NCBI GenBank assembly: GCA_018650645.1
Contig: JABIFP010000023.1
Coordinates: 1-54,475, forward strand
From: Candidatus Magasanikiibacteriota bacterium
Lineage (GTDB): Bacteria; Patescibacteriota; Patescibacteriia; Magasanikbacterales; UBA922
Reading direction: 5' to 3'
DNA length: 54,475 nt
The position numbers and the translations under genes were made by a program. This document shows, piece after piece, positions 1 to 54,475 of this stretch. Under the pieces are notes generated by a model. That model did no database searches and was not told the DNA's origin. It was given only the letters and a program-made list of their open reading frames with translations. The first letter of the stretch is position 1, and every line of letters starts with the position of its first letter.

Positions 1-26
1 CGGCCTCGGAGCACGAGTCTTGAACC

Positions 27-80
27 GGCGCTTCGGCGCCACCACCCGCGGTACCTCTGGTACCGCGGCTTTCTTTTTTT
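27..80 (+). terminator. GC-rich stem-loops closing a high-GC unit that begins upstream of the window (GGCGC-UUCG-GCGCC 27-40; CCGCGGTACC/GGTACCGCGG 46-68 followed by T-run 69-80)
   Basis: Read directly. A possible CDS end (frame 3, GC3-rich codons, TGA at 21-23) precedes it. Confidence 0.6.
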
Positions 81-81
81 A

Positions 82-110
82 TTGCGTATAACCCCTCTTT
101 AGGATACAAT
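82..110 (+). promoter_or_regulatory. sigma70-like promoter TTGCGT-17-TACAAT upstream of trpS
   Basis: -35 at 82-87, 17-nt spacer, -10 at 105-110. ATG at 137. Confidence 0.5.
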
Positions 111-136
111 ACCCCCACATTATTAATGATCAGCAT

Positions 137-1120
137 ATGGCAAAACCGGTGATTTTTTCAGGCATTCAGCCAACAGGGAACCTCCACATTGGAAATTATT
201 TGGGCGCGGTCAAAAATTGGATTGAACTGCAGAACTCTGGAGAATACGATTGCTATTTTTGTGTGGTAGATTACCATGCACTGACAGGAGACAGAACGGC
301 AGAAGAAAGAAGGGAGCAGATCATTCATACGGCAGCAGAACTAATTGCCGCTGGAATAGATCCAGACAAAGTGACATTTTTTGTACAGTCGCACGTGCCG
401 GCGCATACAGAACTCGGGTGGATTTTTAATTCTGTCACACCAATCGCAGAGTTAGAGCGCATGACACAGTATAAAGATAAATCGTCTCAGCAAACAAAGA
501 ATAGTAATGCAGGCCTTTTCACATACCCAACACTTATGGCAGCTGATATTTTACTCTACCATGGAAAATATGTACCTGTGGGTGAAGATCAAATTCAGCA
601 TTTAGAACTTACTCGCGACATTGCAAGGTGGTTTAACAATAAATACGAGTCGTATTTCCCAGAAACAAAGCCTCTTCTTACAGAAATTCCAAGAGTAAAG
701 TCATTACTTGAGCCAACAAAGAAAATGAGTAAGAGTAAAGGGCTTGGGCATGTTATTGAACTTGCTGATGAACCAGATGTTATTGAAAAGAAACTCAAAA
801 AAGCAGTTACAGCAACAGAAGGTGGGGGAGAAGCTCCGGGTGTAGAAAATCTGCTCATGCTACTGAAGCAATTTGGAACGGCAGCACAATATGTAGCATA
901 TACTGAGGCGCAAGAGAACGGATCTATTAGGTATGGTGATTTGAAAGCTGATCTTGGAGTTGCTATTGCTGAAAGTTTTGCAGGTTTCCGTGCTAAACGA
1001 AAAGAATTGCTAGAAAGCAAAGATGCAATTGCAGAAATTTTGATGAAAGGAGCTGCAAAAGCAAATGTTGTGGCAGAAAAAACAATTACAGAAGTAAGAA
1101 CAATCATTGGTGTACGATAA
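137..1120 (+). CDS. trpS: tryptophanyl-tRNA synthetase
   Basis: N-terminal GIQPTGNLHIGNYLG (HIGH-type motif) and KMSKS motif. Length of 327 aa is typical. Confidence 0.95.
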   Translation: MAKPVIFSGIQPTGNLHIGNYLGAVKNWIELQNSGEYDCYFCVVDYHALTGDRTAEERREQIIHTAAELIAAGIDPDKVTFFVQSHVPAHTELGWIFNSVTPIAELERMTQYKDKSSQQTKNSNAGLFTYPTLMAADILLYHGKYVPVGEDQIQHLELTRDIARWFNNKYESYFPETKPLLTEIPRVKSLLEPTKKMSKSKGLGHVIELADEPDVIEKKLKKAVTATEGGGEAPGVENLLMLLKQFGTAAQYVAYTEAQENGSIRYGDLKADLGVAIAESFAGFRAKRKELLESKDAIAEILMKGAAKANVVAEKTITEVRTIIGVR

Positions 1121-1178
1121 GTACACTTTTTGATTCGGTAAAATTGCGGTATACTGCAAGTAATATATTAATACGAGT

Positions 1179-8546: not shown

Positions 8547-8575
8547 TTGACAAAAGAGGTTTTTTGTGGTATAGT
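8547..8575 (+). promoter_or_regulatory. strong sigma70-like promoter TTGACA-17-TATAGT with TGn extension, pointing into high-GC cassette 1
   Basis: -35 at 8547-8552, TG at 8567-8568, -10 at 8570-8575. The sequence is AT-rich and host-like. Confidence 0.6.
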
Positions 8576-8663
8576 GTGGCGTTATGTTTTGCGATGTATG
8601 ATTCGTTTAGCGAGTTATACACTGCAACGCATACCTTGGAATATGTCCTTGGTGTGAATAGCA

Positions 8664-9270
8664 ACGGGCTGTGGGGCCCTGAATAAATCTAAATCCCACT
8701 GAGAGGCCTAACCATGGCCACCGTTAACCCCGTTCAGGCCGCCTTTGCGCTGGATCTCTGGTTCTGGGGGGAGGACTTCGTTTCGATCCCCAAGGGCGTG
8801 ACCTTCGATATGGTCGTGATGGGGAAGGCTCATCTTCCGGGCAACTGGGAGAGGGGTGATGACGAGGTCCTCGGAGAGACCTTCCGGATCGAGCTCGAGG
8901 GTGGGCTGCACCTCTGCGTGTCGGAGGGGCAGTTCTGGCTCGGCCTGAGCCACCCCGAGGTCAACGAGGGGAAGCCCTTTTTCTCCTGGCGCTACAGGCC
9001 GGGGATGCAGACCGAGCACTCCGTTGAGGTGTTGGGGCAACAGGGATCGACTCGGGAGCAGAAGGTGCGTGCTCGAGCCCAGCGCCATGCGCGGCTCATC
9101 AACGCGCTCATGCAGCTTACCGAGGCTTCTCTGCGCCTCAGCTCCTTTTTCTAGCCGCGCGCAACGCGCGGAAGTCGTCCAGCTCACCCGAGCCGGGCGC
9201 CTGCAGAAGTTCCAACTCTGTAGACCTGCGAGCGACTAGAGTACCACTCGGTATTCGTCGCTCGCACATT
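8664..9270 (+). other. high-GC cassette 1 (approximate bounds)
   Basis: Abrupt composition step. Hand counts give 57% and 63% GC on lines 8761 and 8821, versus 35% on line 4021. Confidence 0.7.
8714..9154 (+). CDS. hypothetical Trp-rich protein (146 aa) encoded in high-GC cassette 1
   Basis: About 85% G/C at third codon positions by hand tally, versus about 65% for the antisense ORF. GAGAGG lies 7 nt upstream of the ATG. No family recognised. Confidence 0.75.
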   Translation: MATVNPVQAAFALDLWFWGEDFVSIPKGVTFDMVVMGKAHLPGNWERGDDEVLGETFRIELEGGLHLCVSEGQFWLGLSHPEVNEGKPFFSWRYRPGMQTEHSVEVLGQQGSTREQKVRARAQRHARLINALMQLTEASLRLSSFF

Positions 9271-9372
9271 CTATTATGTTCTCAGTGCGCTGAGGATGCA
9301 TCGAATGAAAAAGAAAAATCGCTTTCCGGCGATATTTTTTTATGGTATCTTTTTAGTATTAATACTATATAT

Positions 9373-16522: not shown

Positions 16523-16559
16523 AAGGACGCGTTAATTTGGACGCGTCCTTTTCTTTTCT
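16523..16559 (+). terminator. intrinsic terminator of argS
   Basis: AAGGACGCG...CGCGTCCTT stem followed by TTCTTTTCT. Confidence 0.7.
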
Positions 16560-16584
16560 CAAACTTTGGCTCACGGAGGTGACC

Positions 16585-17727
16585 GTGCTAGTTGCGAATA
16601 GCGGTGTAAACCGCAACGAAGAAGCTGTCGCCCCCGAGGCGTCAGATGAGTTTCAAGAGGTTGCCCTGACGCGTGACGTCGGTGCCAACACGCTCGCGTA
16701 TGAGCACTCGATTTGTTTGCACCCCGAGCTGTGGAGTGAGCTGACCGCGATCGAACTCCACAAGTGGTTCAGCCCACGTAGCTGGCGCTACTGGGCGCTG
16801 ATGTTGCCGAGCTTCCTGCTGTTCCTGCTGAACGGTTGGTGGCGAGTGGCTGCGGCCTGGATCATCCAGACGCTGGGAGGTCGAGGCCTGTCAGTCCTCG
16901 TTGGGTCTGGCGTCAACAGGTGCTTTACCGTTGTCAGTAAGTTCGCCTACGAACTGCGCGAACTGGTGACTTCGAGTGGATCGCTTGCGATCGTTTACAA
17001 TTACGTCGTCTGGTCGCACATGGAAGGACTGCATCGGCAGCTGACGTGGGGTGAGCGCTACATGCGCTTCCACATGATGCAGCCGGATGCTGTCGCCGTA
17101 CGGCTTCGGGCCATCAAGACGTTTGAACAGGCGCTCAAGCGGCTGGAGAACCTTCTCACAGATCCTGAGCTCGGTCCGACGTTTACGGTCGAGTCGCCGC
17201 TGATATTCCCGGTCCTCGCTTGTGGTAACGCGCAAGCGGAGATCGACGCTGTCTACAGGCTGTACCAGGTCTTCCCTGAGTTCCGCGGACGGGTGAAGCT
17301 CCATCTTGTGGATGCCACTATGGCGCCACTGAGGGCAGCCGCGGATTACGCGGAAAATCGGGGCCTCGAGGGAAACTTTGAGATCTTCTGCATGAAGCTG
17401 CGGCCATACCTGCGCATGGTCAAGGAGCAGGGTTGGAAGATCTACATCCTCGACATCGTCGGGTTTCTCGACTATTACTCGGGGATCAAGATCGCGAGCC
17501 TTCTCGCTTTCATCAAGGATGTGGTGCAGAAAGGCGCCATGATCATCACCGCGCTCATCAGCAAGAGCAAGTTGGCCTTCTCAGTTCGCTGGTCGACCAA
17601 CTGGCCGCTCCTTCGCAGGTACACGAGGGAGCAGTTCACCTCGTTCTTGCTCAAGGCAGGTTTCGAGGGGAACATCACGATCATCTCCTGCATTGATGTC
17701 CACTTCGTGGCCGTCATCACCGTCTAG
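16585..17727 (+). CDS. membrane-anchored class I methyltransferase-like protein (380 aa) in high-GC cassette 2
   Basis: GTG start 5 nt after GGAGG (16575-16579); the ORF is open from 16537. TM-like segment YWALMLPSFLLFLLNGWW. C-terminal Rossmann-like strand pattern: VLACGNAQ, LHLVDAT, IYILDIVGFLDY, GAMIITAL. Confidence 0.7.
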   Translation: MLVANSGVNRNEEAVAPEASDEFQEVALTRDVGANTLAYEHSICLHPELWSELTAIELHKWFSPRSWRYWALMLPSFLLFLLNGWWRVAAAWIIQTLGGRGLSVLVGSGVNRCFTVVSKFAYELRELVTSSGSLAIVYNYVVWSHMEGLHRQLTWGERYMRFHMMQPDAVAVRLRAIKTFEQALKRLENLLTDPELGPTFTVESPLIFPVLACGNAQAEIDAVYRLYQVFPEFRGRVKLHLVDATMAPLRAAADYAENRGLEGNFEIFCMKLRPYLRMVKEQGWKIYILDIVGFLDYYSGIKIASLLAFIKDVVQKGAMIITALISKSKLAFSVRWSTNWPLLRRYTREQFTSFLLKAGFEGNITIISCIDVHFVAVITV

Positions 17728-17822
17728 TCCTTAGACAAACGCATCTGCAATGCGTTCAGGCTTCTACATATGCCTGAAAAGACAACCGTCGATACCCGCC
17801 AGGGAATCCGGAAGTCACAGCA

Positions 17823-17849
17823 CCCTCGGTCTTCGGACCGGGGTTTTTT
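17823..17849 (+). terminator. GC-rich intrinsic terminator with UUCG tetraloop (end of cassette 2)
   Basis: CCTCGGTC-TTCG-GACCGGGG followed by TTTTTT. Confidence 0.75.
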
Positions 17850-17868
17850 AATCCACCTTTGGTGGATT

Positions 17869-17906
17869 ATCCGCCGAAGCAAGGCGAAGCACTTGCGTAG
17901 GAGGAT
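17869..17906 (+). repeat. dispersed palindromic repeat, long variant (ATCCGCCGAAGC...GCGTAGGAGGAT)
   Basis: Shares both 12-nt termini with 33471-33498. Related to 21064-21089 and 24031-24056. Confidence 0.6.
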
Positions 17907-17919
17907 CACAAGTAGCGCC

Positions 17920-17948
17920 TTCAACTCTCGTACAAAATCTGCTACAAT
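17920..17948 (+). promoter_or_regulatory. promoter-like TTCAAC-17-TACAAT only 8 nt from the histidine kinase ATG (leaderless or near-leaderless mRNA)
   Basis: -10 at 17943-17948. ATG at 17957. Confidence 0.4.
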
Positions 17949-17956
17949 ACCTGCAT

Positions 17957-19642
17957 ATGCAAGAGGGTCTGTCACTCAATTATTTTTCGATCTCTGCGCT
18001 CATCAATGCCATGACCTCTCTTGGGCTTGGTATTTTTATTTTACTGACAAATCGGCAGCAGCGCGTGGCAAGATACTTAGTATATTTCTGTTTTGCGGTG
18101 GCAGCGTGGAGTATTCCATATTTTCTTTGGCAAATTTCTGATACGGCAGCCATGGCGTATTTCTGGTCACGCATGCTCATGTTTGGTGCCATCTTTACGT
18201 CTATTGCATACTTCCATCTTGTATTAGTTTTTTTGAAAAAAGAGAATGTTGAGGTGCACAGAATCATGTTTGCCATTTTTTACTTTTTTGTATTTTTCTT
18301 TACCATTGCAAATTTTACCCCATATTTTGTTGCCGGTGTGGCGCCAAAAATGGGCTTTGAATTTTGGCCGGTACCGGGGCCGCTCTACAGTTTCTTTTTG
18401 CTTGGGTTTTTTGCGCATGTAACATACGCATCCATATTACTCTTTAGAAAATATAAAAAAGCAAAAGGAATTCAGAAAAAACAAATCCTTCTTTTGCTGA
18501 TTGGAATTGGACTCGCATTTGTTGGTGGTAGTACAAATTATTTCCTTTGGTACAATATTCCGATTGCGCCATGGGGAAATGGGCTTGTGGCGGTATATGT
18601 ATTACTTACCGCATATTCAATCATGAAATATGGATTCTTGAGTTTTAAAGTTGTTGCGGCGCAAATTTTTACGGGATTACTAATCATGACAGGGTTAATG
18701 GATTTGGTAACCGCTAGAACAACAGGGCAGTTGATTGGGAGTGTGGTATCACTATTCGCCGTATCTGTTTTTGGTCTCATGCTTGTACGTTCCGTTGTTG
18801 GGGAGGTGACCAAACGAGAAGAGTTAGATCGGCTAGCAAAAAAATTAAATCGATTGAATGTAAAACTGAAGCAGCTTGATAGACAAAAGACAGAATTTTT
18901 ATCTATTGCTTCTCATCAGCTCAGAACACCGCTTTCTATTATGAAAGGGTATATCGAACTTATTGAAGACGGCGCATACGGAAAAATTACAAGAAAAACA
19001 AAACATATTTTAGATGAAATGGATGAGAGTAATGAGCGATTGGTAAAACTCGTGGATAGTTTCTTAAATATTAGCAGAATTGAGCAGGGGCGAACAAAAT
19101 ACTCGTTTGAAACGCTGAGCATGCGAGACCTTATCAGTAATGTAGTACACGAATTACATGATAGGGCGGAAGGAAAAGGGTTGAAACTTATTTGGAAGAT
19201 GCCAAAGACTAAGCTTATGACGTATATGGATGAAGAAAAAGTCCGTCATGTTATTTTCAACTTTATTGATAATGCCATTAAATATACTCCAACGGGTAAA
19301 GTGCGGGTATTTGTCACGCAAGAGCATAAAGGAATGAAATTTTCTGTAAAAGATAGTGGAATTGGATTTGATCCAATCGATCAGCCAAACTTTTTCCATA
19401 AGTTCTATAGGGGAAAAAATGTAGAAGGAGAGAATGTAAACGGTACAGGGCTTGGTATTTATGTGTGTAAGCAGTTTGCAGAGGCTCATGGAGGGAAAGT
19501 GTGGGCAAAGAGTGCTGGAAAAGGAAAGGGAAGTGATTTTGGCTTCTGGATCCCAGATCATAGAACAAGCGTCCATAAAAGAAAAGAAAAAGAGGGAAGA
19601 AGCAAAAAACAGCAGGTAGTAAACCAATACAGTACAAAATGA
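17957..19642 (+). CDS. sensor histidine kinase with multi-TM N-terminal domain
   Basis: About 8 hydrophobic helices, then H-box SHQLRTPL, N-box NAIKYTP, G1 DSGIGF and G2 GTGLGIY. Confidence 0.9.
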   Translation: MQEGLSLNYFSISALINAMTSLGLGIFILLTNRQQRVARYLVYFCFAVAAWSIPYFLWQISDTAAMAYFWSRMLMFGAIFTSIAYFHLVLVFLKKENVEVHRIMFAIFYFFVFFFTIANFTPYFVAGVAPKMGFEFWPVPGPLYSFFLLGFFAHVTYASILLFRKYKKAKGIQKKQILLLLIGIGLAFVGGSTNYFLWYNIPIAPWGNGLVAVYVLLTAYSIMKYGFLSFKVVAAQIFTGLLIMTGLMDLVTARTTGQLIGSVVSLFAVSVFGLMLVRSVVGEVTKREELDRLAKKLNRLNVKLKQLDRQKTEFLSIASHQLRTPLSIMKGYIELIEDGAYGKITRKTKHILDEMDESNERLVKLVDSFLNISRIEQGRTKYSFETLSMRDLISNVVHELHDRAEGKGLKLIWKMPKTKLMTYMDEEKVRHVIFNFIDNAIKYTPTGKVRVFVTQEHKGMKFSVKDSGIGFDPIDQPNFFHKFYRGKNVEGENVNGTGLGIYVCKQFAEAHGGKVWAKSAGKGKGSDFGFWIPDHRTSVHKRKEKEGRSKKQQVVNQYSTK

Positions 19643-20984: not shown

Positions 20985-21063
20985 TAGAATCATGAGCACG
21001 TGGTTCGGGAAGAGTAGATAGCTGTCTATTTTTCCCGCATCGCGGCAAACCACGCTCAGGTGG

Positions 21064-21089: not shown

Positions 21090-21120
21090 TGAACTCTGTG
21101 TGGGAAAAATAGAACAATAC

Positions 21121-21206
21121 GCTCAGGTGGCGGAATTGGTAGACGCGCTGGCTTGAGGGGCCAGTGACTCGCAAGGGTCGTGGAGGTTCAAGTCCTCTTC
21201 TGAGCA
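21121..21206 (+). tRNA. tRNA-Leu (anticodon GAG), long variable arm, no encoded CCA
   Basis: GCTCAGG acceptor, GGCGGAATTGGTAGACGCG D-arm typical of tRNA-Leu, anticodon arm CTGGC-TTGAGGG-GCCAG, variable arm GACTC-GCAA-GGGTC, T-arm GGAGG-TTCAAGT-CCTCT. Confidence 0.9.
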
Positions 21207-21361
21207 CAAATATAAGACAGCCGATAAGGCTGTCTTATATTTGTGCGAAAAGAGAGAGGGTTTGAACCGGGGGTGGTAGGGGGCAGAGCCCCCTACATGC
21301 TGCGGAAAAGCTGGAAAAACCTGAAGGTTTTTACAAGAGGACACGAAGTGCCGAGTGAAAG

Positions 21362-21380
21362 GTCCTCTTCTGAGCACAAA
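21362..21380 (+). repeat. 19-bp perfect duplicate of the tRNA-Leu 3' end plus 4 nt of flank (GTCCTCTTCTGAGCACAAA)
   Basis: Identical to 21192-21210. Each copy is followed by its own hairpin (21204-21246; 21383-21406). Confidence 0.85.
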
Positions 21381-21628
21381 CGAAGACACTCGAAAGAGTG
21401 TCTTTTGTGTTGACAAAAACAAAAAAAACGTGTAATAAAGAAGCAGGCCCCCCAATTTTGGGGAGGAAGGACAACAATAAGGTGCATACAAAAGCTATAC
21501 CTCCGGATGAACTCCGGGGAGAGAGCGCAGTCTCTTGTCGCAGGGAAGGTGCGACAAGGCGGATTGTGCCGACGGACGCTGAAGGAAGGCCCACGCGTGT
21601 TCACACGCAGGCCCCTTTCGCGGGACGT

Positions 21629-22273: not shown

Positions 22274-22314
22274 ACCTCCTCCTGCTTGTGCAAGCAGGGA
22301 ACAACTGATGATTC

Positions 22315-44158: not shown

Positions 44159-47100
44159 ATGCGAACGGCGAAACATATTGGAGTAATAGTGAGTCTTGTA
44201 CTATTTTTTGTTGTAAGTATTGGTGGAATTTTTGCATTTGCTCCTGCGCAAGCGGCTCCTGTAGAGGATTTACCGCAAACAACGCAACGATTGGCAATTT
44301 TCAAAGCAGAACAGACTAATCTTTTAAGAAAAGAAGCAAAAAAAGAGACTGATAACTCTATCACAGCCGCAATTTTGGGTGGAGTTCTTGAAATGTTCTC
44401 TAATTTCACTAGACAAATGGCATATGATACCGCTATTTGGGTAGCTAACGGGGGAAAAGGGAAAGGAGCATTGATTTTCCAAGGTGGATTTAACGAATAC
44501 ATGAGCAAGACCATTGGAGACTCCGTTGCGAGTGGTATTGGAGAAATTGGGAAGCCGTTTGGGTTAAATTTATGTCAGGTACCAGATGCTCGGCTTAGTA
44601 TTTTTTTGAAAGTGAATTTGTTTAGACTCTATAGTGATGCGCCTACGGCCAATTGTTCGTGGCAGCAGCTTACACACGGGGGGCTTTTTGACAGAGATGC
44701 GTGGGATCAAAAATATGGTGATTCCAATTTACTTGCAGATACTTTTTCTACCTCACTGAACACAAATTCTACTGATTTGGGTATTGCGATGGGTGCCATT
44801 TATCAAATCGATCGATTAAAAGGGCAAAAAAAAGAAGCAGCAAAGCTTGATAGACAAGAGGGGAGTGGATTCAAGCCGGTAACCAGTCTTATTTCTGGCA
44901 AAGTATTGACGCCTGGGCAACTCGTGAAAAAAGAAACAGAAAAACTTACCAGAACAGAAGACAACAAACTGAGCTCTCAGCAACTAGCGGGTGTGTATAG
45001 TGCTGGATTTGCACAAGTATTGCCTTCAGCAGCATCACTATTTTTAAATACCGTTGCTTCAGAGATGTTAAACAATGTATTTGAAGGACTATTCCCAGAT
45101 CCGGGTGTTGGGTCAAAAGGCACAGGTCTTGGTGGACTGTATGCATCAGAAATTTCGGCCAATAAACAAGCGGTTGATGCTATTTTTGGAAAACTTCTTA
45201 CGGGAGTACCTGTGAAGCAGCAAACTGATTTTGATTTATCACAATTTGCGGCATGTCCGGCAAATCCAGGACTCAACAACTGTGTATTTGATGCGCACAT
45301 GCAGCGTATTTTGGCGCAAGCAAATAATGGGAATGCTGTGACTATTGGTGAAGCATTAGAAGATGGACTTTTACCAGATTGGCCACTTATTTCTCCTAGA
45401 AGAGAAGCTGATCATACGAATATTACCGGATGTCAGACAGGAAAGTTCTGTTATTCAAATATTCAAAAGATGAGAAAGGTGCGTATTTTGCCACTTGGAT
45501 TTGAAATTGCGGCCTTTATGTCAGATCCAGAAAATCCATGGAGATTAAAACAAGTGGTAGATAATTATGATACCTGTAGAAGAGATATCAATGGAACGAT
45601 TATTCCAGATGCACAGTTTCCTTTTTGTGGTTTGATTAATCCAAATTGGGTACTGCGAGCACCGGTTGCAAGATGTGAAACAACCATTATCGGGCCAGAG
45701 CTTATTTCTCCAAAAGGGGCAGCAAGAAGAAGTGAATGTGCGGATATTACTACCTGTATTACAGAAGGACCAAACGGGACCTGTGTGGGTGATCAGAAAT
45801 TTGCATATTGTACAAAAGAAAGTAATACCTGGCAGATTGGAGATCAGTGTCCAAAGGAATACAATACCTGTAGAACGCTCTCAAACAGAGATTCAGGTGA
45901 AGTGGTATCATATTTACTAAATACCGTAGATTACGGTCAGTGTAGTGCAGAAAACAAAGGGTGTCAGGCGTATAGTTTAGAAAAAAATGGCGACGCGTAT
46001 GTTGCCTCAGTTTCACTACAAGATGCGGCTGCAGTAGCTGCGAGCAGAAAAGCTGCAGGAAGAAATCAGGTATTGTACTTTAATGAAAAAGCAGCAGAGG
46101 CGTCAGCTACTTGTAGTAGTGGGTCAGACGGATGTACGCAATTCTTGACAGCAGAGATTGATAACAATACACGTCAAATCGCGCAAAGAGCCGCAGATGA
46201 TGAAGCTGTTGCAGAGCTTGGAGTATACTTCCAGTCTCAAGTGCCAGTGAATTTGCGGTATGCGCCGGACTACCTTGGGTGTTACGATACAAACCCAGAA
46301 ACAGATGAAATTGAATGGCCACAAACAGCTGTTCAGGCAAGATTGAGTGTCTCTCAAGACGAACGGTGTAATGACTACGCGCCTGTTTGTGCGCCAGAAG
46401 AGATTGGGTGTCAGGCATATCTGCCATCGTATCAAGGAGTCGCTATTGGTGGGGAACCAATGGTACCAGGGAAAATCGGTTCATCATTTGTGTGTGATGC
46501 GTCTTGTGAAGGATATGATACATTTAAACAAATCGGTTTTGAAGAATACGGTGCTGGATTTGAACAACAGCAGTTCCCATTGCACTTTATTCCAAATCAA
46601 GCGCAGTCTTGCAACGCGCAAGTAGTTGGGTGTGATGAATTTACTAATATTGATGCAGGTGCAGCAGGAGAAACACGTGAATACTATACATCGCTCAGAT
46701 ATTGTCAAAAACCAGCAGAGGATGGAAGTAACCAGAAAACGTTCTACACATGGGAAGGAAGTATTGAAGACGGATTTTCACTAAAAACATTCCGCATTTT
46801 GCCTGTTGATCAGGCAGAGCTTGCGTACATTCAAAACCTCAATTTGGCAGGTGATCTTGATGATAATTATCAAGACAGCTTCTTTGGTGCAGGTTCTCCG
46901 GCATATGTAGACGACATGAAGGCAACACTTATTAACAATTACGAAGTGTGTAATGAAGAAAACTATCAGATTAGAGTAGATAATCCGCTTGCGGATGGTG
47001 CTGCAGATGATGAGTGTAGAGCAATTTTTGATGATGATGGAAATACCTATTATAGATTAGTAGATCAGCTTGTTACTATTTCAGATGCTTGTCATCCACT

Positions 47101-50100
47101 CAGAAAAACAGAAGCGAATCTCATTGCAGATAATGATTTACAAGCGGGTGTATGTGCAAATAAAGGCGGGCTTTGGGACCAAGGAGCAGCAAGGTGTATG
47201 CGATGTAGTAATGGTGGGGCATTTGATGAAGACAGTGCATCATGTATCTATCAAACAATTTCTTCAGCTGACGGAACACAGTCATGTACAGGGCCAGCGA
47301 ATAATGTAAGTATTTACGAAGGGTGCCGAGCATATGTAGGAAATAACGGAAGAAATATTGAACGCGTATTTATTGATGATTTTGAATCTCAAGGAGAAGA
47401 ACCAGCAGCGCTTGCAGCGGCAAGAGGAGCGTGGGGGCCAGAAGAACAAGTTCGTGTTCTTGCAGAAGCGGTAGACGTTGGGCAGCACTCGTTACTTGTA
47501 GAACACGCAGGTCAGCAGATTGTGACTCGTGCACTTGGTCAAAACAATATGGTACCGGGTGCATCGTATGAAATTTCATTCTGGGCACAAGGAAATGGTA
47601 CGCAGCTTTCGGTGTTCCTTGGAAATGAAGACATCTCGTTTGGCTCATTTACCTTTGACAGAGTCTTAAACAGAGAACGTCCGCTTACTATTGGTGGTGG
47701 ATGGCAAGAATACCGATTAGGACCAGTAGAATTTAATGGAGCAGAAGAGGATTTAGAAAATCTTGCTCTTTGGCTACAGGGAACACCGGTAGAAGGAGAA
47801 CAAGTACGGTACTTTATTGATAAAGTAGTATTAAAACGTCTTCCAGAAAATCTGTACTTGATTAAAGATTCATGGAAAGCGGCAAATGGTGGCGCAGATG
47901 TACCAGCTCTTTGTGATGCTGAACCAAATAACGGATTACCAGGGGCAGCACTTGGCTGTAGAGAATATATCGTAGAAACAACGAGTGCTGTGCATTATGC
48001 AACAGGATTTGAACAGCTCTGTAGAGAAGAAGCGATTGGTTGTCAGCCACTATGGAACACACAAAACACCATTAACGGAGAACAGCCAACAAAAGCGCGC
48101 GCATACCAAGCGTACTGTGCTGGTCCAGATCTGCAGGTGTGTGAAGTTGTTATTGGAGAGCGAGTTGCAGGAAGTTGCCAAATTAAACAAAACGAGCCAG
48201 GATGTTATGTAGAAGAACCAATCGTCATAAATGCTGGAGAAGTATTAGATGCGGCATACATTTCAGATTCAACCGTTATTGTGCCAGCAGATACGCCAAT
48301 TGATGCACCAATTTTCTTAGCAAACAGAGAAGAATTCCAATGTCAGGATGATGCGCTGCTTGGGTGTATGCTTGTTGGAAAAGAAAAACAGTATATTCCA
48401 GATGCGCTCAGTTCAGCGTCATATACGCATGAAGAAGTGTTTGTAAAAAATGATCCATCATTATACAGCACTATTTTGTGTAGAGATGATCAAGTCGGAT
48501 GTGGGCAGTTTAGTGATGATAGTGGTGACTTTTACTTCAAAGATCCGGTAAAAACAGGGCAATCACTGTGTTACTACAATGATCAAGGTGCGCCATATGG
48601 ATGGTTCAAAAAAGATGTAGGGCAGTGTAGTCAAAACAATGATATTGAATGTATTGCGGATGCTGATTGTGGTGAAACACATTTCTGTCAAAATAAAGGA
48701 AAAGTACAGTGTTATGACGGGGGCTTCTTACGAGCTGGTGGTTTTTCTGACATCAGAGCAGCGGGGGATCCGGCTTATGCAAACATGGTTGGGCTCTGTT
48801 CTCCTGAAAATAATAAATGTACAGAATTATTAGACCGAGCAGATACAGATAATGGAACACATCCAGATGGAACACCGTATTATGTGATTTTTGACAGAGA
48901 TATTACTGAGCGCATTAGTAAGTGTGAAGGAAACGTCAGCTTAAATGATGGATGTGTCCTCTTTGATAAAACAGATAATCCAAACAAGATTTTTGACACA
49001 GATTTAACCTATGCCGCAAGTGAAGGCGCGACGCCTCCATTCTCTTCTGTTCCTGCTGTTTCAAATAATAATAATGCAGCACTGAACGATGCAAACATTG
49101 TATTAAAAGTGCAGCGTGACAGAGAATGTAGTGAGTGGTTATCTTGTAAGACGTCTGTGCCTAGAAGGCAAGATGATGGAACAGTAACAGATCTTTGCTA
49201 TGAATATGCAGCATGCAGTGAATTTGGAGAAGATGGCAATTGTATCAACTGGGTAGAAGATGTTCAAGGACCAAATGGTATTCCAGAATCAACAAGCCGG
49301 CTTACCTATAAAAATTATATTCAGCGCGACCAAAGTTGGTACGGGTTTGATTATGTGGGGTATTCGCTCTTTGATAAATATCAAATTAATTACTTAAAGT
49401 ACTTGTTTTTGAATCCAAGTGAATATGCAGGATTGACAGAGGGTAATGTGGTGAAGCCAGAATTTAAGGATTTACGTTCAGTTGTGGTGTATGAACAACC
49501 TTCATACACCCTAGATCAAAATCGGCCAGATGGTCAAGATAATAACCCACTTTCATGTTTAGACAAATCTGATTTTGAATCATGTGGGTTTGTTCAGGAT
49601 GGAGTAAATAAAGGGAGATGTTTACGCGGAAGATGTATTTATCCTGTTGAGGGTGTATTCGAGGGAGATATCTCTGATGAAGATGATGCTGATGTTGCAT
49701 TTGCACAGTTGGAACGTAATAGTTGCAAAAATTTTCCAGAAGAAGATTCGCCGTTTTCAACATTTATTGGTGGAAATGATGCAAAGCAATCAGCAGGTAA
49801 TAGATATACATTTATTACAAAAAAAGAGGGATTTGCAAATGCAAACATTTGTCAGGATGGAAATTGTTCCTGTGGATATACAAAATATACGTATGCAAAT
49901 GGAGAAATGGATTATTGGCAAAATGCAAATATTAAGGGTATTTGTATCAATGGTGATACAGGAAAGATTGGTGGAACCTGTACCGCAGATAGATTTTGTT
50001 TTGATGCTCAAAATAGATTTATTGAAGAAAATGGTGAGCGTGTTGCAAATCCAGAGGTGGAAGGGGCTTGTAGTCTTGTTGAAGAAAAATTGATTACGAG

Positions 50101-53100
50101 CGGTTTCCAAGGGTATTGTCTGGAATATGATTATTCGCGGCCAATTAATGGAAATAGCGGAGACTTTGCATGTTTAACGTGGTTGCCTGCGGATGTTTCT
50201 GCTTCAGGTGCAAATGTGTTCAATGCAAATTTTGAAGCTGGATTTAATTTAGAGCAAGATGCAGAAAATTTTCGAGGGGCGTATTGCGTTGAATCAACAC
50301 AAGTGGCGGCAAGACCACATGCTTTTGCGTATGAACAAGATATCTTGGATACATTCCTCGGAAATGGTGAAGGATCACAGTGGGACAGATTCTTACAAGA
50401 AGGTGTTGATGTCGCGCAGTATGAAGATTTTATTGATGCCGGATTACTTACTCGAGTATATGGACGGTATCAGGAATGGCTTAAAGATGGACAAGCCTGG
50501 CCACCTCGGCAAGCAGAAATAAATGAACTGGGTGAGAATTTTCCTTTTTATGTCAATCCACCGGTAGAGGATCCAGAAACAGGAGGTGTGTTGTATCCGC
50601 TTCCATTATTGAAAGAAAATGCACGGTATCCTGCTGGTATTACCGCAGAGTATTGGGGCGGCGATGCACAAGAAAGTGATGATGAATATGCAGAAAATGT
50701 TGCAGGAGAGGGTGAGCGTGGTCCAGGTCCGGCCTCTTGGTGGTGGTTCTTAGATGTCCAAAGAAGAGGGGAGGTTGCAGGTAGAGATGACTGGCATCTT
50801 CTTGATCAGTTGCATAGAGAGTATCTAGCATTTTTGAACGCAAATGAAATTCCTGAAGGCGATAAGACATATTTTGTAGAAAATCTTCAAGCAGCGCAGG
50901 GTGATCAAATATACCATCCAGGGTTTATTAATATTGGTGCACGTCGATGTGAAAAGGGACTCTATAGCTATACAGCTGGTGATTACGCAAATCTTGTGTG
51001 TAATCAGCCAAATCCCAAAACAATGGCCACAATAGCACAAGAATGGGCATGGCGTGTTCTTGGTGACTCAACATTAGTGCTCCGCGCAGAGCAGGCAGTA
51101 TATAAGGAAAAAAACAATCAGACGCGGGGTGGTCAAGTACATGATGTTGACGCTCCAAATGTTCGAGTAAGAGAAAAAACTATTGATGATGAGCGGTTAA
51201 GTCAGCTTGGCCCACAAAATCCAAGACGGTTAATGCCATCATTTTTAGCTGCCGCGCCAGATGAAGGAGCAGGTAAAACCTATGGGGTAATTATGCACCC
51301 GCCAAGAGATTTTTCTGGAGAAATTTACAAAAGAGCGATGAAGCAGATTTCATATGAGTCTACGGTTCGTGAGTATGATTTCATTTACCCAATAATGTAT
51401 TCACCGGGTAATGTGTACCAGCCAAGAACAGTAGCGCAGGCTCCAAATGATGCCATTTATAATCCTATTTCAGAATCACTCTTTCGTTTAGATCAGGAGG
51501 CTTTTATTAAGGAATCTGATTTACGACGGGTATACTTTACGCCAAGTGCAATTGCGGGTGGATTTGATTATCAGATGTTCCCTCCAATGTGGTCAAATGA
51601 GTTTTATATTGACTTCACAAAGCTGCGTAATCTTCCGGTAAAAAGAGAGATTCGTGCAGTACACATGGCGCGTCCGTGTAATCCGTATGGTAAATGGTGG
51701 AAGACGAATGAAGTATTTCCATCAATGATTCCAGATAGTGGATGTAGGGAAACACCTAAATTGGGTGCTGCTGCCTTAACCTACATGTTAGAAGGTAGGC
51801 AAATTAGACAACCAGAGACAGTGACTTTTGAAATGGATGAAGCTATTGATTATAACGAGGAGATGCGTGAAAGAAATCACGTTGCGCGCAGATATATAGC
51901 AATATTTACCAATGTAGAAAGCGACAAGTCTCCATTTTTGCAGGGAACAGGGTGTGGATTTACAGGAACTGGTGCAAATTGTGAAATAAGTGATAGTAAA
52001 ATTTCGGCTACTCCAGACTTTTTTGACAGGGAAATGGAATGTATTCGCGATGAACGAGACGCAACGGAATCATGGTTTGCGATTGGCATGGACTTTAATA
52101 GTAATGGTGAATTTTTAGGATATGTGTCTAAAGCGTGTAGTTATGGAGACAGAACAGGTGTGCCACAAATGGTAGTTGTTGCAGATTTGTTGGATCAGTG
52201 TACAGCCCTTGCACAAGTGTATAAAGAGTTTGGTCAGGGGGATGATATGATTTTACAAAACACAAATAAAGCATGGACAAATAGAACATGGGGGAATGCC
52301 TTAGATATTGCGCGTTTGCCAGAGCCAGCACTGCATCCATCAAATGCATATCGTCTTGTAAATGATCGAAACGAACCAGTAAAAAGAGAGTCAAGAGACA
52401 TGGTATTGTATGGTGCCATTACCATTGAAGCGCGAAATTTACAAGAAAATGCAACACCAGCTGAGGTAGATGAACTATTTAACAAACTGAGAGATTATAG
52501 TTTTGAGGCAGAAGTGGATGGTGTGTCCTATTCTTGTTATGCGCGCTATGCGGGATTGCCATATAATAGAGGAAGAGAACAGATGAAAACGTGTGAAGCG
52601 CAAGATGCAAGTCGTATTCATGATAATGAAAGCCTTGGCAACCTGCATAGTCAAGAATTGATTAATACGTTGTCAGGAAATGATTGGTCTACCGCAAAGC
52701 GAGGGGTCTTGCAATTATTTGCACAGATTCATCGATTGGTATCGATTGATACATATACAGGGTTGCAGTCAAATGATAATAGAATGCCAGGATTATTGGC
52801 GCAAGGGGCATACTCAGGACAAAAAGTATCTCCGCAAGATGACCGAACAAAATATGGAGCAGTAGATACTTCTTATAATGGCACAAGTGCACGTCCAGGA
52901 GAAATACTCTTACCGCCGCAAATCTATTCTTTGAATCCATTTACCTGTATTGAAAATTCCCCTACAGAAAGTAATCCATGTACCATTGGTGAATATAACA
53001 ATATAACAATCAATGGGAAGAATGGAACCGATACAGATTATGATGGCGATGGAATTGCTGAAGAGGTGGGAAGAACAGGAGAAGCGCGGGCTATTGCGAG

Positions 53101-53854
53101 TGTTGGGTCAGAGCTTGCCATTGTAAACTTCTTTGTTGCTGCAGACGATAACCGCATGCCAATTAGACGGATTAAAATGGATTGGGGTGATGAAAATATA
53201 GGGGGAATTTTGCGGAATGAAGGACTTTATAAAAATGCAAAACCATTTTGTGAGTCATCCGATAGTGGGGGGCGGCCAAATATGGGGCTCTGTGTCTTTG
53301 AAGACAATCCAAATATTCCAACAAATTTGACATGTAAAACTGCAGGAGAAAATCAGTGCGGTACCGGAATGGTGTGTAAAACAAAAGATGATTTACGACA
53401 AGAGAATAATGGATTTGCTGAGTCATATCAGCATAAACGCTTTGGAAACACACCACGTGCATGTGATGATCAATATGTTGAAATGACACATAGCTATACC
53501 TGTGGTTTGCGTGAGAGAGATATTCCAGGAGTGTTTGTACCAGTAACAAATCTGTTAGAAGAGTATCAACAGCAATTAGAAGAAATGGGTGTTGGGCGTG
53601 ATGAAGAGGTGTGTTATTACAAGCCACGAGTGCAGGTGCTTGATAATTGGGGTTGGTGTAATGGTAGTTGTGATATTTCTATTGATATTGATGGTGATGG
53701 TGTTGGGGATGGATGTAGTGATGTGACACCAGGGCCTTTAAATACAATTGAAGAGCAATGCTCTGATACTGCAGTAGCTGAATTTGAAAATGCGTGGACA
53801 GAGTATCAAGGAGCCATCATTGTTGTACCAAAGCCAGAGGTTGCCGGGCAATAA
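44159..53854 (+). CDS. giant Cys-rich secreted/surface protein (3231 aa)
   Basis: Single uninterrupted ORF. Signal/TM N-terminus. Many Cys pairs. Jelly-roll CBM-like segment at ~47369-47840. D-x-D-G-D Ca-binding-like motifs near the C-terminus. Confidence 0.9.
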   Translation: MRTAKHIGVIVSLVLFFVVSIGGIFAFAPAQAAPVEDLPQTTQRLAIFKAEQTNLLRKEAKKETDNSITAAILGGVLEMFSNFTRQMAYDTAIWVANGGKGKGALIFQGGFNEYMSKTIGDSVASGIGEIGKPFGLNLCQVPDARLSIFLKVNLFRLYSDAPTANCSWQQLTHGGLFDRDAWDQKYGDSNLLADTFSTSLNTNSTDLGIAMGAIYQIDRLKGQKKEAAKLDRQEGSGFKPVTSLISGKVLTPGQLVKKETEKLTRTEDNKLSSQQLAGVYSAGFAQVLPSAASLFLNTVASEMLNNVFEGLFPDPGVGSKGTGLGGLYASEISANKQAVDAIFGKLLTGVPVKQQTDFDLSQFAACPANPGLNNCVFDAHMQRILAQANNGNAVTIGEALEDGLLPDWPLISPRREADHTNITGCQTGKFCYSNIQKMRKVRILPLGFEIAAFMSDPENPWRLKQVVDNYDTCRRDINGTIIPDAQFPFCGLINPNWVLRAPVARCETTIIGPELISPKGAARRSECADITTCITEGPNGTCVGDQKFAYCTKESNTWQIGDQCPKEYNTCRTLSNRDSGEVVSYLLNTVDYGQCSAENKGCQAYSLEKNGDAYVASVSLQDAAAVAASRKAAGRNQVLYFNEKAAEASATCSSGSDGCTQFLTAEIDNNTRQIAQRAADDEAVAELGVYFQSQVPVNLRYAPDYLGCYDTNPETDEIEWPQTAVQARLSVSQDERCNDYAPVCAPEEIGCQAYLPSYQGVAIGGEPMVPGKIGSSFVCDASCEGYDTFKQIGFEEYGAGFEQQQFPLHFIPNQAQSCNAQVVGCDEFTNIDAGAAGETREYYTSLRYCQKPAEDGSNQKTFYTWEGSIEDGFSLKTFRILPVDQAELAYIQNLNLAGDLDDNYQDSFFGAGSPAYVDDMKATLINNYEVCNEENYQIRVDNPLADGAADDECRAIFDDDGNTYYRLVDQLVTISDACHPLRKTEANLIADNDLQAGVCANKGGLWDQGAARCMRCSNGGAFDEDSASCIYQTISSADGTQSCTGPANNVSIYEGCRAYVGNNGRNIERVFIDDFESQGEEPAALAAARGAWGPEEQVRVLAEAVDVGQHSLLVEHAGQQIVTRALGQNNMVPGASYEISFWAQGNGTQLSVFLGNEDISFGSFTFDRVLNRERPLTIGGGWQEYRLGPVEFNGAEEDLENLALWLQGTPVEGEQVRYFIDKVVLKRLPENLYLIKDSWKAANGGADVPALCDAEPNNGLPGAALGCREYIVETTSAVHYATGFEQLCREEAIGCQPLWNTQNTINGEQPTKARAYQAYCAGPDLQVCEVVIGERVAGSCQIKQNEPGCYVEEPIVINAGEVLDAAYISDSTVIVPADTPIDAPIFLANREEFQCQDDALLGCMLVGKEKQYIPDALSSASYTHEEVFVKNDPSLYSTILCRDDQVGCGQFSDDSGDFYFKDPVKTGQSLCYYNDQGAPYGWFKKDVGQCSQNNDIECIADADCGETHFCQNKGKVQCYDGGFLRAGGFSDIRAAGDPAYANMVGLCSPENNKCTELLDRADTDNGTHPDGTPYYVIFDRDITERISKCEGNVSLNDGCVLFDKTDNPNKIFDTDLTYAASEGATPPFSSVPAVSNNNNAALNDANIVLKVQRDRECSEWLSCKTSVPRRQDDGTVTDLCYEYAACSEFGEDGNCINWVEDVQGPNGIPESTSRLTYKNYIQRDQSWYGFDYVGYSLFDKYQINYLKYLFLNPSEYAGLTEGNVVKPEFKDLRSVVVYEQPSYTLDQNRPDGQDNNPLSCLDKSDFESCGFVQDGVNKGRCLRGRCIYPVEGVFEGDISDEDDADVAFAQLERNSCKNFPEEDSPFSTFIGGNDAKQSAGNRYTFITKKEGFANANICQDGNCSCGYTKYTYANGEMDYWQNANIKGICINGDTGKIGGTCTADRFCFDAQNRFIEENGERVANPEVEGACSLVEEKLITSGFQGYCLEYDYSRPINGNSGDFACLTWLPADVSASGANVFNANFEAGFNLEQDAENFRGAYCVESTQVAARPHAFAYEQDILDTFLGNGEGSQWDRFLQEGVDVAQYEDFIDAGLLTRVYGRYQEWLKDGQAWPPRQAEINELGENFPFYVNPPVEDPETGGVLYPLPLLKENARYPAGITAEYWGGDAQESDDEYAENVAGEGERGPGPASWWWFLDVQRRGEVAGRDDWHLLDQLHREYLAFLNANEIPEGDKTYFVENLQAAQGDQIYHPGFINIGARRCEKGLYSYTAGDYANLVCNQPNPKTMATIAQEWAWRVLGDSTLVLRAEQAVYKEKNNQTRGGQVHDVDAPNVRVREKTIDDERLSQLGPQNPRRLMPSFLAAAPDEGAGKTYGVIMHPPRDFSGEIYKRAMKQISYESTVREYDFIYPIMYSPGNVYQPRTVAQAPNDAIYNPISESLFRLDQEAFIKESDLRRVYFTPSAIAGGFDYQMFPPMWSNEFYIDFTKLRNLPVKREIRAVHMARPCNPYGKWWKTNEVFPSMIPDSGCRETPKLGAAALTYMLEGRQIRQPETVTFEMDEAIDYNEEMRERNHVARRYIAIFTNVESDKSPFLQGTGCGFTGTGANCEISDSKISATPDFFDREMECIRDERDATESWFAIGMDFNSNGEFLGYVSKACSYGDRTGVPQMVVVADLLDQCTALAQVYKEFGQGDDMILQNTNKAWTNRTWGNALDIARLPEPALHPSNAYRLVNDRNEPVKRESRDMVLYGAITIEARNLQENATPAEVDELFNKLRDYSFEAEVDGVSYSCYARYAGLPYNRGREQMKTCEAQDASRIHDNESLGNLHSQELINTLSGNDWSTAKRGVLQLFAQIHRLVSIDTYTGLQSNDNRMPGLLAQGAYSGQKVSPQDDRTKYGAVDTSYNGTSARPGEILLPPQIYSLNPFTCIENSPTESNPCTIGEYNNITINGKNGTDTDYDGDGIAEEVGRTGEARAIASVGSELAIVNFFVAADDNRMPIRRIKMDWGDENIGGILRNEGLYKNAKPFCESSDSGGRPNMGLCVFEDNPNIPTNLTCKTAGENQCGTGMVCKTKDDLRQENNGFAESYQHKRFGNTPRACDDQYVEMTHSYTCGLRERDIPGVFVPVTNLLEEYQQQLEEMGVGRDEEVCYYKPRVQVLDNWGWCNGSCDISIDIDGDGVGDGCSDVTPGPLNTIEEQCSDTAVAEFENAWTEYQGAIIVVPKPEVAGQ

Positions 53855-53872
53855 TGCCTAAGGGAACAAATA

Positions 53873-53905
53873 AAAGAACCAGTGATGACACTGGTTCTTT
53901 TATTG
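53873..53905 (+). terminator. intrinsic terminator of the giant gene
   Basis: 13-bp stem AAAAGAACCAGTG/CACTGGTTCTTTT followed by T-rich sequence. Confidence 0.8.
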
Positions 53906-53943
53906 TCTGCTTCCTTCAAAATAAGTAAAGGAAATAGGCAGTG

Positions 53944-53971
53944 CCCAGGTCAGCGAAAGTGCTGACCTGGG
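53944..53971 (-). terminator. GC-rich stem-loop downstream of the minus-strand high-GC ORF
   Basis: 11-bp perfect stem CCCAGGTCAGC/GCTGACCTGGG, 24 nt after the stop codon. Confidence 0.6.
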
Positions 53972-53994
53972 GTGCATGCAAGAGCGAGGCGTGC

Positions 53995-54475
53995 TCAGTT
54001 GCCACGGGCGTAGAAAACTTCAGTGATGTCCCCTTCGGGTGTGGCGCTGATTCGCTCCGTGAGCACACCATCTCCGTCCAGCTCAACCTCGATCCAGGCA
54101 CCATCCTCCTCGTAGTGGAGGGGAAGCTCCGTGCCGAAGTAGATCGCGCCTTCGAGGAGTGCGCCGCGACCATCGGAGGTGAGCTGGCAGTCGTTCGACA
54201 GGGGATTCAGGTGCAGGTACATCGGGTTGTCCAGCATCGGACGATCGACGTGTTCACCCAAGTTGCTGTCCCAAAATGATCCCAGACGGAACCACTCTCC
54301 CTCGATCACCCGGAGGTTCTCGCAGGTGTCGGTGGCCGGCGGGGGCACGTTGGCCTCTTCCCGCTGGCAGATGACCGGCGGGCTCGGGGTGAGGGACTTC
54401 TGAGCGAACCCATCAGGGCACGGCTCGTCGTCCTCCACGACCTCGCAGTCAACGTCCTCGATGCAGTCACGCACC
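53995..54475 (-). CDS. C-terminal part of a hypothetical Cys/Asp-rich protein in high-GC cassette 4 (5' end beyond the window)
   Basis: Strong G/C third-position bias in this frame. TGA stop at 53995-53997. No family recognised. Confidence 0.65.
   Translation of the reverse strand, partial: VRDCIEDVDCEVVEDDEPCPDGFAQKSLTPSPPVICQREEANVPPPATDTCENLRVIEGEWFRLGSFWDSNLGEHVDRPMLDNPMYLHLNPLSNDCQLTSDGRGALLEGAIYFGTELPLHYEEDGAWIEVELDGDGVLTERISATPEGDITEVFYARGN

Follow-up and report, generated by a model that had tools for sequence, protein, structure and literature searches.

Bacteria of the candidate phyla radiation (CPR) combine tiny genomes with a presumed dependence on other cells, and little is known of how they acquire new genes. 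One known type of small accessory gene is the moron of lambdoid phages: a single extra gene of deviant composition, equipped with its own promoter and terminator, which lies between phage genes. Here, we describe five short GC-rich blocks in the low-GC genome of Candidatus Magasanikiibacteriota bacterium (GenBank JABIFP010000023.1; the complete stretch of 54,475 nt is termed the window), numbered 1 to 5 in order of position. Like morons, they are one-gene units with a promoter-like site, a Shine-Dalgarno (SD) sequence, a terminator and a deviant composition, which have unrelated neighbours and carry no mobility function; unlike morons, they sit among housekeeping genes of the chromosome, with no prophage, and gave no match in PHROGs, phage or IMG/VR sequences. 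We give an even chance to the reading that the blocks are accessory, moron-like single-gene units of foreign ancestry, residing in transfer hot spots, drawn from a circulating pool of GC-rich, SD-using genes and kept under purifying selection.

Transfer hot spots between core genes that contain no mobile-element genes have been described by Oliveira, Touchon, Cury & Rocha (2017, PMC5635113), who link them to homologous recombination in the core genes on either side. Our blocks are alike in that accessory genes occupy fixed core-gene intervals of varying content, without integrase or transposase, and in that one of them is near a tRNA gene. They are unlike the described hot spots in that each occupied interval of the window genome holds one tiny unit (0.25-1.3 kb) and in that the units of the window are uniform in their foreign composition and in their foreign type of translation start; our comparison extends over five relatives, not a pan-genome. 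A preliminary description of the window had held that such islets are not explained by standard models. This is unsupported, since the hot-spot pattern without mobility genes was already on record (PMC5635113); three of the five intervals act as hot spots and block 4 has a tRNA-linked direct repeat beside it (see below).

Five GC-rich blocks with sharp limits

The data span 73.7 kb, i.e., the window plus 9.9 kb upstream and 9.4 kb downstream, the flanks being taken from identical contigs. Over a background of ~0.41 GC, a 300-nt sliding profile rises sharply five times, to 0.58-0.68, and five blocks, no more, lie over four robust standard deviations above the median GC (z 6.4-8.8). Their limits, set by log-odds segmentation, are listed here with the features of each unit, in window numbering (ORF, open reading frame; GC3, GC content at third codon positions).

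-177..69 (247 nt), block 1, between pnp and trpS; mostly upstream of the window, with the upstream part in contig L011
1..80, + strand, tail of block 1: last seven codons and stop (21-23) of a 44-codon mini-ORF
27-40 and 46-68, + strand, hairpins of block 1: GGCGC-UUCG-GCGCC, and a terminator hairpin followed by a T-run (69-80)
8547..8575, + strand, promoter-like site of block 2: sigma-70-like TTGACA-17-TATAGT with an upstream TG, 11 of 12 matches, a consensus match only
8695..9265, + strand, block 2: GC 0.63; SD GAGAGG at 8701-8706; ORF 8714..9154, 146 aa
9155-9171 and 9228-9265, + strand, hairpins of block 2, with an AT-type terminator at 9318-9333
16568..17843, + strand, block 3: GC 0.58; directly after the argS terminator (16523-16550)
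16585..17727, + strand, ORF of block 3 (also called from 16537): GTG start, 380 aa, GC3 0.76; SD GGAGG at 16575-16579
17824-17843, + strand, terminator of block 3, with a UUCG loop
21403..22348, + strand, block 4 unit: GC-rich segment 21500..22338; TTGACA box at 21403 with an imperfect -10; SD GGGGAGG at 21460-21466
ending at 22273, + strand, ORF of block 4: start GTG 21482 (263 aa) or ATG 21629 (214 aa), longest frame from 21398
22281-22298 and 22315-22338, + strand, 3' signals of block 4: a hairpin, and a terminator followed by a T-run
53937..54702 (past the window end at 54475), - strand, block 5: GC 0.64; stop 53995-53997; 3' hairpin 53944-53973

The codon make-up of the block genes differs markedly from that of their neighbours. 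Per-ORF counts give a GC3 of 0.70-0.82 for block genes vs. 0.22-0.45 for 40-odd host genes, and not one gene of intermediate GC3 occurs in the 74 kb. In every block gene GC1 > GC2 < GC3, the pattern of true coding sequence from a GC-rich genome (block 2 ORF: 0.65/0.41/0.82, GC 0.63; block 4 ORF: GC 0.60, GC3 0.70; part of the block 5 ORF at 53995..54474+: GC 0.62, GC3 0.78). The third positions are nearly uniform over the four block genes of the window (A3 0.03-0.08, T3 0.15-0.16), and this holds although block 3 is old and block 4 lineage-specific. The amino acids are shifted as well, from K to R/A/G/W: lysine makes up 0.5-3.7% of the block proteins vs. 7.5% of host proteins, with R, G and W being more frequent.

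Each GC-rich segment begins at the start codon or at most ~40 nt from it, near its own SD, and ends with a GC-rich hairpin terminator after one ORF. A sequence scan found terminators in all five blocks, UUCG loops being present in the terminal hairpins at 27-40 and 17824-17843. Promoter-like sites of host type, all of them consensus matches only, lie in AT-rich DNA just upstream of blocks 1, 2 and 5; the one of block 4 is weaker and block 3 has none. The site of block 1, found in L011, reads TTGACA-17-TATAGT (11 of 12 matches) and is followed by the SD; that of block 2 is ~138 nt 5' of the start codon. Block 1 contains two hydrophobic ORFs of 27 and 44 codons that overlap at GTGA (GC3 0.74 and 0.76), while the full product of block 5 (221 aa) starts with a lipoprotein signal (…LLGMGLSAC) with the lipobox LSAC. 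The block 5 gene converges on the terminator of a 3231-aa gene. Small GC-rich ORFs in relatives resemble the block 1 mini-ORFs (L042 2168-2323 and L021 7466-7636, both on the - strand): one encodes a 33-aa hydrophobic peptide behind GGAGGG, the other a 56-aa Cys/Trp/His-rich peptide.

Comparison between the blocks revealed no common sequence, boundary motifs included. Neither Pfam scans nor precomputed Pfam hits over the window and its 10-kb flanks gave an integrase, transposase or recombinase domain. The composition boundaries are free of inverted or direct repeats, so that the blocks do not have the make-up of an insertion sequence (IS) element or a miniature inverted-repeat transposable element (MITE). 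Perfect 12-nt inverted repeats do surround block 2 (8449-8460/9427-9438) and block 5 (53973-53984/~54784-54795; L039 19815-19826/20626-20637); the two pairs differ in sequence, lie off the composition boundaries and are near chance (~0.04-0.05 expected per region). Structured RNA in place of genes was considered too: Rfam matched only tRNA-Leu and RNase P RNA, and codon periodicity, the SD sites and dN/dS (see below) speak for coding segments.

These results largely bear out the preliminary description, which had reported the composition steps, the G/C-biased third positions, proteins rich in R/A/G/W next to K-rich neighbours, GC-rich stem-loop terminators (two with UUCG loops), and the lack of integrases, transposases, terminal inverted repeats and clear target-site duplications. 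Some of its details need amendment. Its single ORF per block holds for blocks 2-5, while block 1 has two overlapping mini-ORFs; the block that it placed at 1-80 is indeed GC-rich but represents just the 3' tail of the 247-nt block 1; and the one at ~53940-54475 is a GC-rich single gene, but on the minus strand and running off the window.

Block junctions in independent assemblies

A chimeric assembly had been offered as one explanation of the blocks. The window is a whole NCBI contig of which both ends lie inside blocks, and a set of other contigs (L004, L006-L010, L012, L033-L037, L041) end at or near block edges, at 8552-8596, 9562-9604, 21329, 22160-22342 and 54226, which could be taken as signs of faulty joining. 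We retrieved contigs by exact look-up of three host proteins and one block protein: some 40 of them, from JGI, ENA and Logan, with megahit-style k141 and SPAdes-style NODE names and from several samples, reproduce the junctions. Identity to the window across the block junctions is 100% in all but one (99.5%), and contigs of 134, 186 and 614 kb pass uninterrupted through the blocks. Lower coverage of GC-rich DNA, or population variation, could account for the contig breaks. As the junctions are identical across sources, samples and contigs of both assembler-type names, and as an orthologous block 3 occupies the same site in a different species (L021, below), the probability that the blocks are artefacts of assembly or binning is negligible.

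A second type of translation start

A 4-nt SD core of the GGAG/GAGG type precedes the start codon in one of 41 host genes and in all five blocks: GGGGGGAG in block 1, GAGAGG in block 2, GGAGG in block 3, GGGGAGG in block 4 and AGGAGG in block 5. It had been said that host genes mostly lack an SD, which is correct, and that two blocks carry one, which is an undercount. Host genes have AT-rich DNA in front of their starts, for instance “taatac..at ATG” (as upstream of 137, 4020, 10651, 14806 and 44159). The relatives follow the same division, with an SD core in four of the ~50 host genes scored vs. most of the GC-rich block genes; host genes without SD were found in the related loci L021, L043, L044 and L048. 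According to a published survey, Parcubacteria frequently lack the anti-SD motif (PMC9297842). Three signals, each independent of the others, support a foreign character of the blocks: GC/GC3, the amino-acid shift and SD-led starts.

Block 3 and its orthologue

A word-indexed search of 5.8e9 proteins returned one homologue of the block 3 protein, P0002, which is 59-61% identical and is encoded at the same argS|hisK site of L021, a locus from another assembly. L021 is the next relative, ~25% diverged in DNA, and its flanking proteins are about 80% identical to those of the window (range 70-92%). The L021 orthologue has a GC3 of 0.62 vs. 0.32-0.36 in its flanks (window copy: 0.76), and the context GGAGGTGAC before the GTG start is kept between the two lineages. 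Nei-Gojobori estimates (window vs. L021) give a rate of synonymous change (dS) of 1.9 for block 3, within the 1.0-2.4 of the flanks, and a ratio of non-synonymous to synonymous change (dN/dS) of 0.19, from which it follows that the gene is real and constrained. Block 3 is therefore about as old as the split of the window and L021 lineages. The “repeated very recent” transfer of “unameliorated” islets that had been suggested fails for this block: a very recent transfer is excluded by the same-site orthologue with its near-saturated synonymous sites.

How far should the composition of such a gene have relaxed? At 114 four-fold degenerate sites in conserved codons, 64% differ between the two copies of block 3, vs. 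72% at full randomisation. The GC content at these sites (GC4) is 0.70 in the window copy and 0.61 in that of L021, and 0.35 and 0.31, respectively, in the flanks. Had the gene started from a GC4 of 0.9-1.0 and decayed neutrally as fast as the flanks, it should now be at 0.59-0.64 in the window and 0.57-0.62 in L021; the window copy is at or above this ceiling and the L021 copy inside the range. This one orthologue pair is compatible with both slow fading and held-in-place GC-richness. Under the reading that we favour, block genes would persist for long periods under purifying selection, and their GC excess would decay slowly or not at all.

A hydrophobic stretch, seen in the sequence at about residues 68-97 of the block 3 protein, may be a membrane anchor; the structure model is unusable, with a predicted local distance difference test (pLDDT) score of 38.

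Block 4, tRNA-Leu and the block 4 family

Block 4 lies in the interval between tRNA-Leu and RNase P RNA, which contains the following further features.

21121..21207, + strand, tRNA-Leu(GAG): its last 16 nt and 3 nt downstream (21192-21210) are repeated exactly at 21362-21380
21362..21404, + strand, second copy of the tRNA-Leu 3' end: 19 nt, then a terminator-like hairpin (21383-21404); an att-like scar directly 5' of block 4
23775-24206, - strand, RNase P RNA: class A, 169.6 bits; right-hand border of the variable interval

The preliminary description, which saw no clear target-site duplications, had missed this 19-nt repeat, the chance expectation of which is nil (0 of 100 shuffles). L021 has the tRNA copy only. 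The second copy thus suggests a tRNA-linked integration or duplication, and an older site-specific integration could possibly have left it behind. The arrangement is like that of the tRNA-linked islets of tyrosine-integrase elements in that block 4 follows tRNA-Leu and that the 3'-end repeat is absent in a relative without the block; it is unlike them in that the copies enclose 151 nt (a bounded segment of 170 nt) with block 4 outside and no third copy downstream, and in that there is no integrase at the site, neither the block 4 ORF nor the adjacent 438-aa ORF having a Pfam match. This 438-aa ORF (22391-23707, - strand) has an N-terminal hydrophobic segment and no recognised domain, and is absent from L021. 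A 12-nt repeat of the tRNA-Leu 5' end, ACGCTCAGGTGG, is found at 21052-21063 and 21119-21130, 67 nt upstream of the tRNA; taken together, the 5'- and 3'-end repeats suggest a past rearrangement around tRNA-Leu.

In L021, the tRNA-Leu|RNase P interval contains neither block 4 nor the 438-aa gene; instead, it holds a low-GC gene of 199 aa and a GC-rich patch of 270 nt with a 56-aa Cys/Trp/His-rich ORF.

A full HMMER pass over 1.84e9 cluster representatives found four remote homologues of the block 4 protein, at 32-40% identity. The contigs of three of the four were readable, and each has the homologue as a single GC-rich gene in a lower-GC genome.

L046: homologue GC3 0.80, neighbours 0.19-0.31; between SNase and PurO
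L048: homologue GC3 0.63, neighbours ~0.40; between PLD and TsaE
L050: homologue GC3 0.65, neighbours 0.36-0.52; adjoins RuvA

SD cores precede the homologues in L048 (AGGAGG) and L050 (AGGAG), the L046 copy having only GAAGGGGG; by eye, a TTGACA box is present upstream of each of the three and a terminator-like hairpin 3' in L050. Since the genes are not syntenic between genomes, the family moves, and as far as the sequences at hand go, it is known only as GC-rich islets in lower-GC genomes. A tRNA fragment suspected by eye upstream of the L046 homologue was unsupported by Rfam. That genome, whose copy is the closest to the block 4 protein, contains a LOOT RNA (RF03000) at L046 565-697 (+ strand; 80 bits, E 4e-14).

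The family alignment shows conserved RHGxW and GxYxxGxPxGxWxW motifs. An AlphaFold2 model of the block 4 protein predicts beta-hairpin repeats (pLDDT 62) and has no significant fold match in the PDB (best Foldseek E 0.085). We considered an identity as a MORN/YwqK-like protein: the five family members have no Pfam match at E <= 10 and the PDB profile search gave E >= 0.08, and as the likeness amounts to motifs and modelled beta-hairpins with no significant structure match, the assignment is unjustified. The size of the block 4 product differs between sources (214, 263, 271, 288 and 291 aa). Gene calling is error-prone in high-GC islets of low-GC genomes.

Variable intervals between core genes

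The neighbours of the blocks are housekeeping genes and RNAs, i.e., pnp, trpS, valS, argS, tRNA-Leu and RNase P RNA. We collected relatives by exact-protein look-ups and a search with valyl-tRNA synthetase (ValRS), of which the closest named matches are from Candidatus Magasanikbacteria and other Patescibacteria (59-68% identity); scans of genome and metagenome collections for close relatives with arginyl-tRNA synthetase gave distant matches only (24-48% identity). Three of the five intervals (argS|hisK, DHH|valS and tRNA-Leu|RNase P) were compared in L021 and in L042, L043 and L044, the latter three having ~70% ValRS identity to the window. All three hold different accessory genes in the relatives, and some of this cargo is GC-rich.

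At argS|hisK, where L021 has the block 3 orthologue, L043 has a PemK toxin pair and a block of 1.4 kb and 65% GC with a different gene, and L042 (16684-20159) has three low-GC genes, for a weakly ThiF-like, a nitroreductase-like and an unknown protein. The toxin region of L043 (16555-17134) comprises a 65-aa ORF and a PemK-family toxin. Its GC-rich block (17188-18630) had been annotated by the gene caller on the wrong strand, as a 480-aa R/G/D/E-rich product; 17329..18582 (+ strand, 417 aa) is the plausible ORF. The DHH|valS interval, the site of block 2, is empty in L042 and L043 and contains a different GC-rich ORF in L044, which has a GC3 of 0.65 and encodes a glycine-rich membrane protein. 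The contents of the tRNA-Leu interval in L021 were given above.

According to the reading that we favour, the blocks would sit in a few permissive intervals just 3' of the terminators of core genes or of tRNA-Leu, and the same intervals, being empty or filled with other GC-rich orphan genes or with low-GC cargo in relatives, would be the transfer hot spots of the clade. We infer that recombination in the conserved genes on either side brings the units in and spreads them, and propose this as the reason why mobility genes are absent.

Integron cassettes and lone attC sites are another described system of single mobile genes. The blocks are alike in combining an SD, one orphan ORF and 3' hairpin(s) in a promoterless GC-rich unit of non-host composition, with no mobility genes inside and with most of the products being orphans, which would fit integron-type or other hairpin-targeted cassettes inserted singly at secondary sites. 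They are unlike cassettes in that the ~74 kb contain no attC cores, array or integron integrase. A regular-expression scan of both strands for attC (RYYYAAC...GTTRRRY, 57-141 nt) gave seven candidate pairs, none within the blocks; their arms are poorly complementary (7-12 of 25), and the nearest pair (16347-16483), within the 3' end of argS, stops 85 nt short of block 3. The hairpins of the blocks are ordinary terminators, i.e., short stems followed by T-runs, no sequence is common to the blocks, and three or four of them have a promoter-like site of their own. It is very improbable, then, that the blocks are such cassettes, and the undescribed cassette-insertion process that had been envisaged finds no backing in this form.

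Origin of the GC-rich composition

The products of the blocks are two hydrophobic mini-peptides, a lipoprotein, a putative membrane-anchored protein, a protein of predicted beta-hairpin repeats and a soluble orphan, which points to possible functions in the envelope or in cell-cell contact or conflict. Searches of Pfam, NCBIfam, PADLOC, PHROGs and PDB sequences with the block proteins gave nothing significant, and tblastn against phages and plasmids and scans of IMG/VR yielded nothing but one match restricted to a signal peptide. The earlier remark that three of the four proteins belong to no nameable family agrees with the Pfam, NCBIfam, PDB and structure searches; the idea of immunity-type proteins found no match in PADLOC, Pfam, NCBIfam or PHROGs. 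The 146-aa protein of block 2 has no homologue but itself in the word-indexed search (5.8e9 proteins); it had been suspected of being a paralogue of the neighbouring 155-aa protein, which comparison did not support. For the block 5 protein, the search covered the phage, plasmid and IMG/VR collections.

Could the blocks be direct, fairly recent transfers from one high-GC organism living with the bacterium, such as the host of an epibiont, the first option of the preliminary description? The uniform third positions suggest a single compositional source, many high-GC phyla typically have SD-led starts, L021, the nearest relative available, lacks block 4, and a type IV secretion-like cluster adjoins block 5. 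The proteins of blocks 2 and 3 are, however, without homologue among 5.8e9 proteins save for the L021 orthologue of block 3, and the block 4 protein has only four among 1.84e9 representatives, all three that could be read being in lower-GC genomes. Block 3 predates the split from L021, and the intervals of the blocks contain GC-rich genes of other kinds in further relatives. With no homologue of the searched proteins in a GC-rich context and with block 3 being that old, a direct recent transfer from a high-GC host is distinctly improbable.

A different view is that the blocks are a resident class of genes, the GC-rich, SD-led design of which is actively maintained in an AT-rich, SD-less genome, either by selection (on mRNA stability or structure, or for a separate mode of translation initiation) or by GC-biased gene conversion at recombination hot spots. 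We consider this unlikely, though to be taken seriously. The block 3 pair argues for it, having a GC4 of 0.70/0.61 after 64% divergence at four-fold sites, with the window copy at or above the neutral upper limit, and so does its conserved SD context. Moreover, the old block 3 and the lineage-specific block 4 have the same third-position make-up, genes of intermediate GC3 are lacking, and GC-richness is shared by the block 4 homologues (32-40% identity) of the three other genomes read. On the other hand, given an extremely GC-rich donor, the neutral expectation and the confidence intervals overlap, and the L021 copy has lost GC3 (0.62 vs. 0.76), as amelioration predicts. The shift extends to GC1, GC2 and the amino acids, as is usual for genes that have long evolved in a GC-rich genome; the composition changes abruptly, without the gradients into the flanks that conversion tracts would give; and the block 4 family is non-syntenic and thus mobile. 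The folding of the transcripts bears on the same question: block coding sequences fold slightly better than synonymous-codon shuffles (z -1.3 to -2.7, vs. +0.3 to -1.2 in host genes). This excess of mRNA structure is weak, concerns few genes and does not decide between import and maintenance. A whole-transcript z of -7.9 for block 2 is discounted because shuffling AT-rich ends with a GC-rich core inflates the score.

We prefer to see the blocks as imported accessory units, which would have been drawn from a GC-rich, SD-using gene pool that circulates among low-GC bacteria. Several points weigh against this. No homologue was found in any GC-rich genome, phage, plasmid or IMG/VR contig (the block 1 peptides were not searched), and with no donor found, the “GC-rich pool” is deduced from composition alone. 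Should GC-richness be actively maintained, “foreign ancestry” would be the wrong frame altogether. No promoter lies between the argS terminator and the SD of block 3, and the tRNA-Leu repeat is no clean attL/attR pair, block 4 being outside the repeat-bounded segment. The reading is furthermore based on ~74 kb, from a genome of at least 614 kb, and on five related loci.

Significance for CPR genomes

Accessory genes at hot spots, in a genome known to take up foreign DNA, are the ordinary part of what we describe. The odd part is that a set of near-orphan, GC-rich, SD-led genes recurs in related genomes that are low in GC and SD-less, with a composition long unrelaxed. A broader proposition, which we put forward as doubtful, is that low-GC, SD-less Patescibacteria stably carry a second class of GC-rich, SD-led orphan units, exchanged at fixed hot spots, the composition of which does not relax after synonymous turnover. 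If true, it would imply either a hidden pool of genes in a GC-rich replicon or partner, or a local force (selection on mRNA or translation starts, or biased conversion) that holds a foreign composition.

Accessory genes of CPR bacteria can be told by two independent marks, composition and SD use; they land in a few fixed intervals devoid of mobility genes and belong to families seen almost nowhere else. Should the pool prove to be a partner organism or an unseen replicon, the blocks would point directly to it from within the genome. Should the composition be held in place instead, they would be an unusually clear exception to amelioration, which would bear on the dating and detection of transfer by GC content and translation-initiation signals. 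Gene calling is also affected, given that callers chose wrong strands or starts in several blocks.

Neighbouring genes

Gene content agrees with the placement of the organism close to Candidatus Magasanikbacteria. Giant ORFs without known domains are typical of CPR genomes. Two in the window have no Pfam match: that of 3231 aa (44159-53854), upon which block 5 converges, and one of 946 aa (36305-39145). A 2455-aa ORF upstream of the window (L011 1-6224) has Big_5 and CarboxypepD_reg domains. The type IV secretion-like cluster (PrgI, TraC-like, VirB4/DUF87) is just past the 3' end of the window, by block 5 (L039 21032-29696), and is preceded by large unannotated ORFs. Metabolic genes are few in the window and its flanks.

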